Assembly (NCBI RefSeq): GCF_013122565.1
Contig: NZ_CP053258.1
DNA length: 64,000 bases
Direction: 5' to 3' (one strand)
Source: Escherichia coli
GTDB taxonomy: Bacteria > Pseudomonadota > Gammaproteobacteria > Enterobacterales > Enterobacteriaceae
In this document: piece by piece, positions 22,938 through 24,210 of the stretch
Position numbering within the stretch: position 1 is the stretch's first letter
Layout of the letters: the number at the start of each line of letters is the position of its first letter
Program-made: the position numbers and the translations under genes
Notes under the pieces: generated by a model
Told to the model about the DNA's origin: nothing
Databases searched by the model: none
The model's input: only the letters and a program-made list of their open reading frames with translations

Positions 22938-22953
22938 TAGACCAGTCGGTCTA
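22938..22953. promoter_or_regulatory. NemR-box-like inverted repeat upstream of nemR
   Basis: TAGACCAGTCGGTCTA (half-sites TAGACC/GGTCTA), 15-30 nt upstream of the nemR start codon. Confidence 0.65.
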
Positions 22954-23025
22954 GCGCAAGTAAAGTTGCTACTTTGGGCATTAACAGCTTCAATAATGGT
23001 AATAATCTTATCTGAGGAGGGCGAG

Positions 23026-23265
23026 GTGGCGGAGCAATTAGAGTTCTTTCCCGTCCAGAGCCCGTGCCGGGGAATTTGCCAGTCTGACGAACGCGGATTT
23101 TGTCGCGGCTGTTTTCGTAGTCGGGATGAGCGTTTTAACTGGAATAAAATGAGCGATGGCGAAAAACAAGAGGTGCTGCGCCTTTGTCGGCAACGATTAA
23201 TGCGCAAATTACGTGCAAATAAGCCAGCGTCATCAGACGAACCGGAGCAACCATCACTCTTTTGA
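23026..23265 (+). CDS. ydhL: DUF1289-family Cys-rich small protein YdhL (79 aa)
   Basis: GTG at 23026 with GAGGAGG 6 nt upstream; translation MAEQLEFFPVQSPCRGICQSDERGFCRGCFRS...; the ORF-track 136-aa version is a 5' over-extension. Confidence 0.75.
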   Translation: MAEQLEFFPVQSPCRGICQSDERGFCRGCFRSRDERFNWNKMSDGEKQEVLRLCRQRLMRKLRANKPASSDEPEQPSLF

Positions 23266-23313
23266 GCCTAATCTTGCGTATACTCCTCTCATATCTGATA
23301 AGAGGAAGCGATT

Positions 23314-24210
23314 ATGGTTCAGCGTATTACTATTGCGCCGCAAGGCCCGGAGTTTTCCCGTTTTGTGATGGGCTACTGGCGATTGATGGACTGGAACATG
23401 TCCGCCCGCCAGCTGGTCAGTTTTATTGAAGAGCATCTGGATCTCGGCGTGACCACCGTGGACCATGCTGATATTTATGGTGGCTATCAGTGCGAAGCGG
23501 CGTTTGGCGAGGCGCTGAAACTGGCACCTCACCTGCGTGAGCGGATGGAAATAGTCAGTAAATGCGGTATCGCGACGACCGCGCGTGAAGAAAACGTCAT
23601 TGGTCATTATATCACTGACCGCGATCACATCATTAAGAGCGCCGAAGAGTCGCTAATTAATCTTGCGACCGATCATCTGGATCTGCTGTTAATCCACCGC
23701 CCGGACCCGTTAATGGATGCCGATGAAGTGGCGGACGCGTTCAAACATCTGCATCAGAGCGGCAAAGTGCGTCATTTTGGCGTATCCAACTTCACGCCCG
23801 CGCAATTTGCCCTGTTGCAATCACGCCTGCCGTTTACCCTTGCCACTAATCAGGTGGAAATATCCCCGGTACATCAGCCGTTACTGCTGGATGGCACGCT
23901 CGACCAACTGCAACAACTGCGTGTTCGTCCGATGGCGTGGTCTTGCCTTGGCGGTGGTCGTCTGTTTAATGATGATTATTTCCAGCCGCTGCGTGATGAA
24001 CTGACTGTGGTGGCAGAGGAGTTAAACGCGGGCTCGATTGAACAGGTGGTTTACGCCTGGGTACTACGTTTACCGTCGCAGCCGCTGCCAATTATCGGCT
24101 CAGGTAAAATTGAGCGCGTACGGTCAGCGGTCGAAGCAGAAACACTGAAAATGACCCGTCAACAATGGTTTCGTATCCGTAAAGCGGCACTGGGTTACGA
24201 CGTACCGTAA
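23314..24210 (+). CDS. ydhF: aldo-keto reductase YdhF
   Basis: ORF track 298 aa; AKR-family sequence. Confidence 0.88.
   Translation: MVQRITIAPQGPEFSRFVMGYWRLMDWNMSARQLVSFIEEHLDLGVTTVDHADIYGGYQCEAAFGEALKLAPHLRERMEIVSKCGIATTAREENVIGHYITDRDHIIKSAEESLINLATDHLDLLLIHRPDPLMDADEVADAFKHLHQSGKVRHFGVSNFTPAQFALLQSRLPFTLATNQVEISPVHQPLLLDGTLDQLQQLRVRPMAWSCLGGGRLFNDDYFQPLRDELTVVAEELNAGSIEQVVYAWVLRLPSQPLPIIGSGKIERVRSAVEAETLKMTRQQWFRIRKAALGYDVP

Follow-up and report, generated by a model that had tools for sequence, protein, structure and literature searches.

What does a protein of only 79 residues gain from keeping its two flexible ends as unchanged as the core that they flank? The question is raised by ydhL, a small gene in the 64,000-nucleotide stretch of Escherichia coli DNA analyzed here (NCBI RefSeq assembly GCF_013122565.1, contig NZ_CP053258.1; hereafter, the window). 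As a feature ydhL is nothing new, being an already known, uncharacterized member of the DUF1289 family; an initial annotation, made from the DNA sequence, had given its function as unknown, and we likewise found no molecular function assigned to YdhL in the literature. That annotation made no mention of the conserved motifs that YdhL carries at both termini, outside the Pfam domain. The motifs resemble the peptides through which replication and repair proteins bind the beta sliding clamp, DnaN, and we tentatively propose, as a reading that is possible rather than probable, that YdhL docks on the clamp through these two ends, which flank a module of four cysteines (Cys4).

Conserved motifs at the two ends of YdhL

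Translation of positions 23026-23265 on the plus strand gives the product VAEQLEFFPVQSPCRGICQSDERGFCRGCFRSRDERFNWNKMSDGEKQEVLRLCRQRLMRKLRANKPASSDEPEQPSLF, 79 residues followed by a stop codon. Conservation was measured as the mean frequency of the commonest residue over 73 distinct Enterobacterales proteins, and came to 0.90 for residues 1-10, 0.88 for residues 11-40, 0.80 for residues 41-61, 0.55 for the linker (residues 62-73), and 0.89 for residues 74-79. The ends AEQLEFF and EQPSLF thus match the core in conservation, and the linker between core and tail drifts. The C-terminal pattern Q-[PS]-x-L-F closes the protein in all 80 Enterobacterales loci of our synteny set. Both ends are flexible in an AlphaFold2 model of YdhL built on an alignment of 85 homologues, where residues 1-10 and 71-79 have a mean predicted local distance difference test (pLDDT) score of 66 and 65, respectively, and show no secondary structure; the tail carries a net charge of -3, and its motif is the very end of the protein.

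The pattern extends through much of the family, for which motifs were counted in representatives clustered at 50% identity and compared with composition-preserving shuffles (n = 1000 for the tails). Of 137 representatives, 111 have the motif Q-x-x-[LMF]-F among the 14 residues that precede the first cysteine, compared with 3.6 in shuffled sequences (maximum 11), and the tails hold 97 instances distributed over 58 of 131 proteins, compared with 2.9 +/- 1.7 in shuffles (maximum 9). In the tail motif, position 2 holds L (24), F (18), or A (11), position 3 holds D (52) or S (21), position 4 holds L (79) or M (16), and position 5 is F; the three residues on its N-terminal side are rich in D and P, and the motif closes the protein in 27 cases, with a single residue following it in 13. 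The resulting family tail logo reads Q-[LF]-[DS]-[LM]-F with acidic flanks. Homologues of 140-240 residues carry acidic, low-complexity linkers with two to four repeats of the motif (PQxD[LM]F...DDQ[LF]D[LM]F), and the canonical QLELF occurs in Dickeya and Lonsdalea, with QLDLF, QFDLF, or QLDMF in other genera. Named members with terminal motifs belong to Enterobacterales, Vibrio, and Aliidiomarina. The N-terminal motif is missing from distant DUF1289 members, from tandem-domain proteins, and from phage copies, which suggests that the motifs are an addition to the core and not part of its fold; the Pfam model does not include the terminal Q-x-x-[LM]-F motifs, which only a subfamily carries.

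The family tail motif matches published descriptions of clamp-binding peptides. The clamp-binding consensus of Dalrymple is QL[SD]LF, and natural motifs take the form Q-phi-x-[L/M]-[F/L] or the six-residue variant Q-phi-x-[LM]-x-[FL], with QLDLF as the strongest binder (PMC11139829). Such motifs sit in disordered C-terminal tails, as in Pol II and Pol IV as well as Pol III alpha, or at the N terminus, as in Hda, and they either have acidic flanks or end in a free carboxylate (PMC11139829). The family tail consensus fits the published one fully, and the ends of YdhL provide the same setting, with flexible, low-confidence segments (pLDDT 66 and 65), a tail charge of -3, and a free carboxyl terminus. 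Like Hda (N-terminal QLSLPL), Pol II (C-terminal QLGLF), Pol IV (C-terminal QLVLGL), and MutL (QPLLI), YdhL would present a short motif in a flexible tail, and its QPSLF shares proline at position 2 with the MutL motif (PMC11139829). Unlike these partners, YdhL has no enzymatic or AAA+ domain and consists of only a 50-residue Cys4 module between two motifs, with up to four motifs in the long homologues, and its clamp binding is a proposal.

A different use of the same tail would be to mimic the C-terminal tip of SSB (DDDIPF) and thereby compete for SSB-interacting proteins, and tails such as DDQFDLF and DDQLDMFS, which are acidic and end in hydrophobic-x-F at a free carboxyl terminus, do recall such a tip. 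However, the invariant glutamine together with [LM]-F, without a proline before the final phenylalanine, fits the clamp motif and not the I-P-F tip, and a second copy of the motif at the N terminus could not imitate a C-terminal tip at all; we consider SSB mimicry highly improbable.

Several observations weigh against clamp docking. Each of the E. coli motifs is one position off consensus, QLEFF having F in place of L or M at its position 4 and QPSLF having Pro at its position 2, and about 1.3 E. coli proteins are expected to end in Q-x-x-[LMF]-F by chance, so that the argument rests on conservation and not on a single sequence. The N-terminal and tail motifs did not co-occur significantly in our representative set, which is noisy (odds ratio 2.2, p = 0.13), and the N-terminal motif lies 5 residues from the first cysteine, where it could pack on the core. 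None of the genes next to ydhL is a replication gene; gloA, nemRA, and ydhF, or an EamA transporter gene, are found there instead. YdhL is absent from the clamp partners listed in a 2024 review, which itself describes that list as short and acknowledges it to be incomplete (PMC11139829), and we found no link between YdhL and the clamp in the literature. We also modeled the complex with AlphaFold2 as a single chain, DnaN-29aa-DnaN-29aa-YdhL (aa, amino acids), after checking the E. coli DnaN sequence against 1MMI. In that model DnaN was unfolded (mean pLDDT 51; predicted template modeling score 0.29), because its alignment was shallow, with homologues 87-93% identical, and the YdhL ends scored 51 and 53 compared with 66 and 65 alone; the model carries no information either way.

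The Cys4 core and clamp-independent readings

The part of YdhL between the motifs is the DUF1289 domain. A Pfam search, one of the checks proposed in the initial annotation, matched DUF1289 (PF06945) with 69.3 bits against a cut-off of 27 (E = 2.4e-19) and aligned residues 12-57 with positions 1-46 of the 47-position profile, and together with the RefSeq label for the identical coding sequence, 'ydhL: DUF1289 domain-containing protein', this confirms both the gene name and the family. NCBIfam has no family that matches YdhL. At family level the protein does not differ from DUF1289/COG3313, 'predicted Fe-S protein YdhL' (Fe-S, iron-sulfur), of which it is the E. coli namesake and with which it shares a full-length match, four cysteines, and small size.

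The initial annotation had described a four-cysteine protein and had named a lack of cysteine conservation among homologues as one observation that would count against it. The motif C14-x3-C18-x7-C26-x2-C29 stands, and its cysteines are invariant in 85 diverse homologues down to approximately 32% identity, as are P13, R31, E35, and W39; the protein has, however, five cysteines in total, and the uncounted C54 is not invariant. Q4, G24, G28, and R57 are conserved in at least 90% of the same homologues, and the 3-7-2 spacing of the cysteines is kept in 130 of 150 family representatives. In the AlphaFold2 model (mean pLDDT 84 overall, and 91-95 for residues 11-60) the cysteines form a short knuckle that is accompanied by helices at residues 33-41 and 44-65, and the core (residues ~11-66) has a net charge of +8.

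With four invariant cysteines, binding of a metal, either zinc or an Fe-S cluster, can reasonably be inferred and is plausible for YdhL. The spacing C-x3-C-x7-C-x2-C is, to our knowledge, neither a canonical Fe-S signature nor a classical ferredoxin or radical-SAM pattern. A search for solved structural relatives of the model returned none, with no zinc-binding or Fe-S fold matched, and a sequence search of the PDB gave a spurious repeat-protein match only. A profile search of the PDB yielded a sub-threshold match (E = 0.13) that places C18...C26-x2-C29 and the helix that follows on the zinc-binding B-box/coiled-coil of TRIM5. The module is similar to small Cys4 zinc modules such as zinc ribbons and knuckles, the TRIM B-box, and YacG-type proteins in that two short cysteine pairs, preceded by Gly/Pro, are followed by a helix in a small, basic protein.

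In the main rival of clamp docking, YdhL would be a redox protein, built on a Cys4 metal or Fe-S site, and would act with its neighbors in electrophile and oxidant defense, independently of the clamp. It could do so as a thiol/zinc switch, as an electron carrier, or as a helper of the YdhF reductase or of the NemA/GloA pathway, with terminal motifs that are structural or that serve a partner other than the clamp. The invariance of the four cysteines agrees with such a role, as do source annotations that call the protein 'predicted Fe-S protein YdhL' or 'Fe-S oxidoreductase', although the former label, where sources use it, is itself only a prediction. Overexpression of ydhL from the ASKA collection confers resistance to hydrogen peroxide (H2O2) at three times the minimum inhibitory concentration and to hypochlorous acid (HOCl) (PMC8228696); on the other side, the overexpression screen yielded many unrelated genes. 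The noncanonical spacing and the lack of any Fe-S or redox fold among our matches argue against a redox protein, which would also leave unexplained why Q-[LF]-[DS]-[LM]-F is kept at the very end of variable acidic tails. We regard a clamp-independent redox or metal role as nearly as likely as clamp docking, and return to its genomic context below.

Alternatively, YdhL could be a small zinc-finger-like regulator, in the manner of YacG, a small zinc-finger regulator, with a basic core that binds nucleic acid or protein and tails that recruit a partner other than the clamp. The core charge of +8, the invariant or nearly invariant R31 and R57, the weak match to the TRIM5 B-box profile, and the modular distribution of the domain in SH3_3 fusions, tandem copies, and phages would all suit such a protein. 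Set against this, no significant structural or sequence relative was found among solved zinc fingers, the gene context suggests no partner, and the tail motif fits the clamp consensus better than it fits the other bacterial docking motifs known to us; we judge this alternative quite unlikely.

Concerning the distribution of the domain, some proteins join DUF1289 to a bacterial SH3_3 domain on its C-terminal side or carry it as tandem double domains (five proteins noted), and core-only copies are found in phages (seven hits), including the Pseudomonas jumbo phage PaBG and the Roseobacter phage CRP-1, with no annotation on the matching region.

Deletion phenotypes have also been reported. A Keio deletion of ydhL loses rifampin-induced tolerance to ofloxacin, as do recA, recC, recG, ruvA, priA, and uvrD mutants (PMC5845583), and deletion of ydhL lowers tolerance to ciprofloxacin (PMC13131330). 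The published phenotypes, those from overexpression included, are compatible with a role in DNA transactions and with a redox role alike, and are weakly in line with clamp docking. The gene was called essential by transposon directed insertion-site sequencing only (PMC5821084), and we reject essentiality in view of the viable Keio deletions in use (PMC5845583, PMC13131330); the lack of transposon insertions in a gene of 240 bp may reflect its small size or a local insertion bias.

Coding status and surroundings of ydhL

The coordinates of ydhL, its motifs, and its neighbors are collected in Table 1.

Table 1. Positions in the window of ydhL, the motifs of its product, and flanking features
Feature	Position	Strand	Basis
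ydhL coding sequence	23026..23265	+	79 codons plus stop, GTG start; RefSeq annotation at identical coordinates; third-position substitution bias
Shine-Dalgarno sequence GAGGAGG	23014..23020	+	5 nt 5' of the ydhL GTG
QLEFF codons, residues 4-8 (clamp-motif-like N-terminal motif)	23035..23049	+	Family enrichment; outside Pfam domain
DUF1289 domain, residues 12-57	23059..23196	+	Pfam match; AlphaFold2 core pLDDT 91-95
Cys4 motif C14-x3-C18-x7-C26-x2-C29	23065..23112	+	Four cysteines invariant in 85 homologues
QPSLF-COOH codons, residues 75-79 (clamp-motif-like C-terminal motif)	23248..23262	+	Conservation and family tail logo
nemR, TetR-family repressor, divergent neighbor	22324..22923	-	Annotation; family match
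nemR-ydhL intergenic region, 102 bp, with palindrome TAGACCAGTCGGTCTA at 22938-22953	22924..23025	.	Sequence
ydhL-ydhF gap, 48 bp, with conserved box TGCGTATACTC at 23275-23285	23266..23313	+	Sequence; cross-genus comparison
ydhF, aldo/keto reductase, possible operon partner	23314..24210	+	ATG at 23314; 48 bp separate it from the ydhL stop

Judged by its sequence evolution, ydhL is a genuine conserved protein-coding gene. Its position between nemR and ydhF and its near-identical sequence identify it as the ydhL orthologue, and the 601 bases around it (22800-23400) have counterparts of 95-99.5% identity in 5425 of 5426 complete E. coli genomes, in which the gene carries the annotation ydhL. Among 80 Enterobacterales orthologues, 78 have exactly 79 codons, and differences between these 78 and the window fall mostly on the third codon position (1057/697/3362 at positions 1/2/3). 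The 79-residue product, the GTG start, and the strong GAGGAGG ribosome-binding site described in the initial annotation are all borne out by the sequence: the start codon is GTG in 67 orthologues, ATG in 12, and TTG in 1, and in every one of the 80 loci a Shine-Dalgarno-like AGGAGG or GGAG lies upstream at the same distance from it. An exhaustive homologue search returned 1316 clusters at 50% identity. A small reading frame with a GTG start, for which we retrieved no direct proteomic evidence, might in principle be spurious or untranslated, but the third-position bias, the constant length, the retained start and Shine-Dalgarno sequence, the number of homologue clusters, the Pfam match, and the phenotypes reported from deletion as well as overexpression make that idea scarcely credible.

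A longer in-frame reading frame, from TTG at 22855 to 23265 on the plus strand (136 residues), was rejected, as its extension overlaps nemR and differs among entries. Many public YdhL entries are N-terminally extended to 87-125 residues, and since the added stretches vary between entries and run into nemR or its promoter, they look like start-site errors. Over 22800-23400, 59 complete E. coli genomes reach at least 99% identity to the window, with most at 95-99%, and Escherichia albertii NBRC 107761 has a YdhL protein of 100% identity, whose start is ATG and not GTG; at this locus the strain that supplied the window may stand apart from the main E. coli cluster.

The gene order in E. coli is lhr-rnt-gloA-nemA-nemR / ydhL-ydhF-sodC / ydhK, and the initial annotation correctly placed ydhL divergent from nemR, with ydhF downstream after a gap of 48 bp; the intergenic region between nemR and ydhL measures 102 bp. 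The palindrome TAGACCAGTCGGTCTA, 73-88 bp upstream of the ydhL start, is presumably the NemR operator. Mutations in the nemR-ydhL intergenic region have been reported in honey-evolved E. coli. A published sigma-54 site, IA14 (CTGGTTCAGTGTTTGCT; PMC4591121), lies at 22636-22652 on the plus strand, antisense within nemR and facing ydhL, approximately 370 bp upstream of its start.

A strict sigma-70 scan found no promoter for ydhL or ydhF, and a relaxed scan gave only weak candidates that we do not trust; a scan of the 48-bp gap between the two genes found no terminator, and an Rfam scan of the gap found no RNA family. The gap does hold an 11-nucleotide box, TGCGTATACTC, that is shared by Escherichia, Citrobacter, Klebsiella/Raoultella, Kluyvera, Enterobacter, and Pluralibacter in an otherwise variable gap. 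A -10-like TATACT and the palindrome GTATAC are found within the box, no -35 element is recognizable, and the box lies 29 nucleotides before the ydhF ATG; it may be a promoter of ydhF's own or a site for an operator or regulator. Because of that, the co-transcription of ydhL and ydhF is plausible rather than established. A candidate hairpin (23283-23307) in which CUCCUCU would pair with the ydhF ribosome-binding site AGAGGAAG was rejected, as it folded no better than shuffled sequences (z = -1.46) and lacks conservation beyond Escherichia, its upstream arm being missing in Citrobacter, Klebsiella, and others.

The wider gene context was assessed in the 80 Enterobacterales loci and in seven further loci looked up singly. 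In E. coli the genes around ydhL (gloA, nemA, nemR, ydhF, and sodC) favor the redox role discussed above, and ydhF lies 3' of ydhL in approximately 57 of the 80 loci, with nemR as the divergent neighbor in most Enterobacteriaceae. The association with gloA, which adjoins or lies near ydhL well beyond that family, favors it as well: gloA is the direct divergent neighbor, without nemRA and ydhF, in 18 loci from Photorhabdus, Dickeya, Lonsdalea, Brenneria, and others, and it also lies near a DUF1289 gene in unrelated contigs, as rnt-gloA-x-DUF1289 in one and nth-gloA-...-csp-DUF1289 in two. On this distribution, an older gloA/ydhL pair would seem to have been joined later by nemRA, and by ydhF. 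Outside Enterobacterales, however, the neighbors differ, which speaks against a redox partnership with them. In two lineages, one of them Aliidiomarina, an EamA-family transporter gene follows the DUF1289 gene downstream, the two overlapping by 4 bp or abutting (L002, 5001-6136; L008, 5001-6137), which suggests an operon with a partner other than ydhF, and in Vibrio cholerae the DUF1289 gene has unrelated neighbors. Overall, the context points loosely to electrophile defense and not to replication.

A possible small clamp partner

If YdhL does bind the clamp, we propose the following arrangement. In this small cytoplasmic protein, a compact, basic Cys4 core, whose knuckle most likely holds a metal ion (zinc is favored and an Fe-S cluster possible) and is followed by two helices, would be flanked by a flexible N-terminal QLEFF and by a variable acidic linker that ends in a free QPSLF, the two being putative clamp-binding motifs. 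Both terminal peptides would dock into the hydrophobic clefts of the DnaN dimer, which would place the basic module beside the DNA that runs through the clamp and make YdhL a small clamp-associated factor. The thiolate-metal center could then respond to oxidants or electrophiles, which would fit both the neighboring gloA, nemRA, ydhF, and sodC genes and the reported phenotypes. Our results establish that ydhL is a real gene of the DUF1289 family with invariant cysteines and conserved terminal motifs; metal binding, clamp binding, redox sensing, and any effect on replication or repair are inferred.

Extended to the subfamily found in Enterobacterales, Vibrio, and Aliidiomarina, the proposal would make these proteins an unrecognized clamp partner that couples oxidant and electrophile stress to replication or repair, a step that we offer as doubtful. 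Such coupling might be achieved, for example, by occupying the clamp clefts or by a DNA-binding sensor placed at the fork, with additional copies of the motif in the long homologues. Essentially all E. coli genomes contain ydhL, its homologues extend over many bacterial lineages, and several genome-wide screens have scored it. Should the clamp idea prove wrong, the conserved tails would still mark a docking interaction worth finding; should it hold, this small conserved protein, bearing two motifs close to the consensus, would be a clamp client of a new kind.

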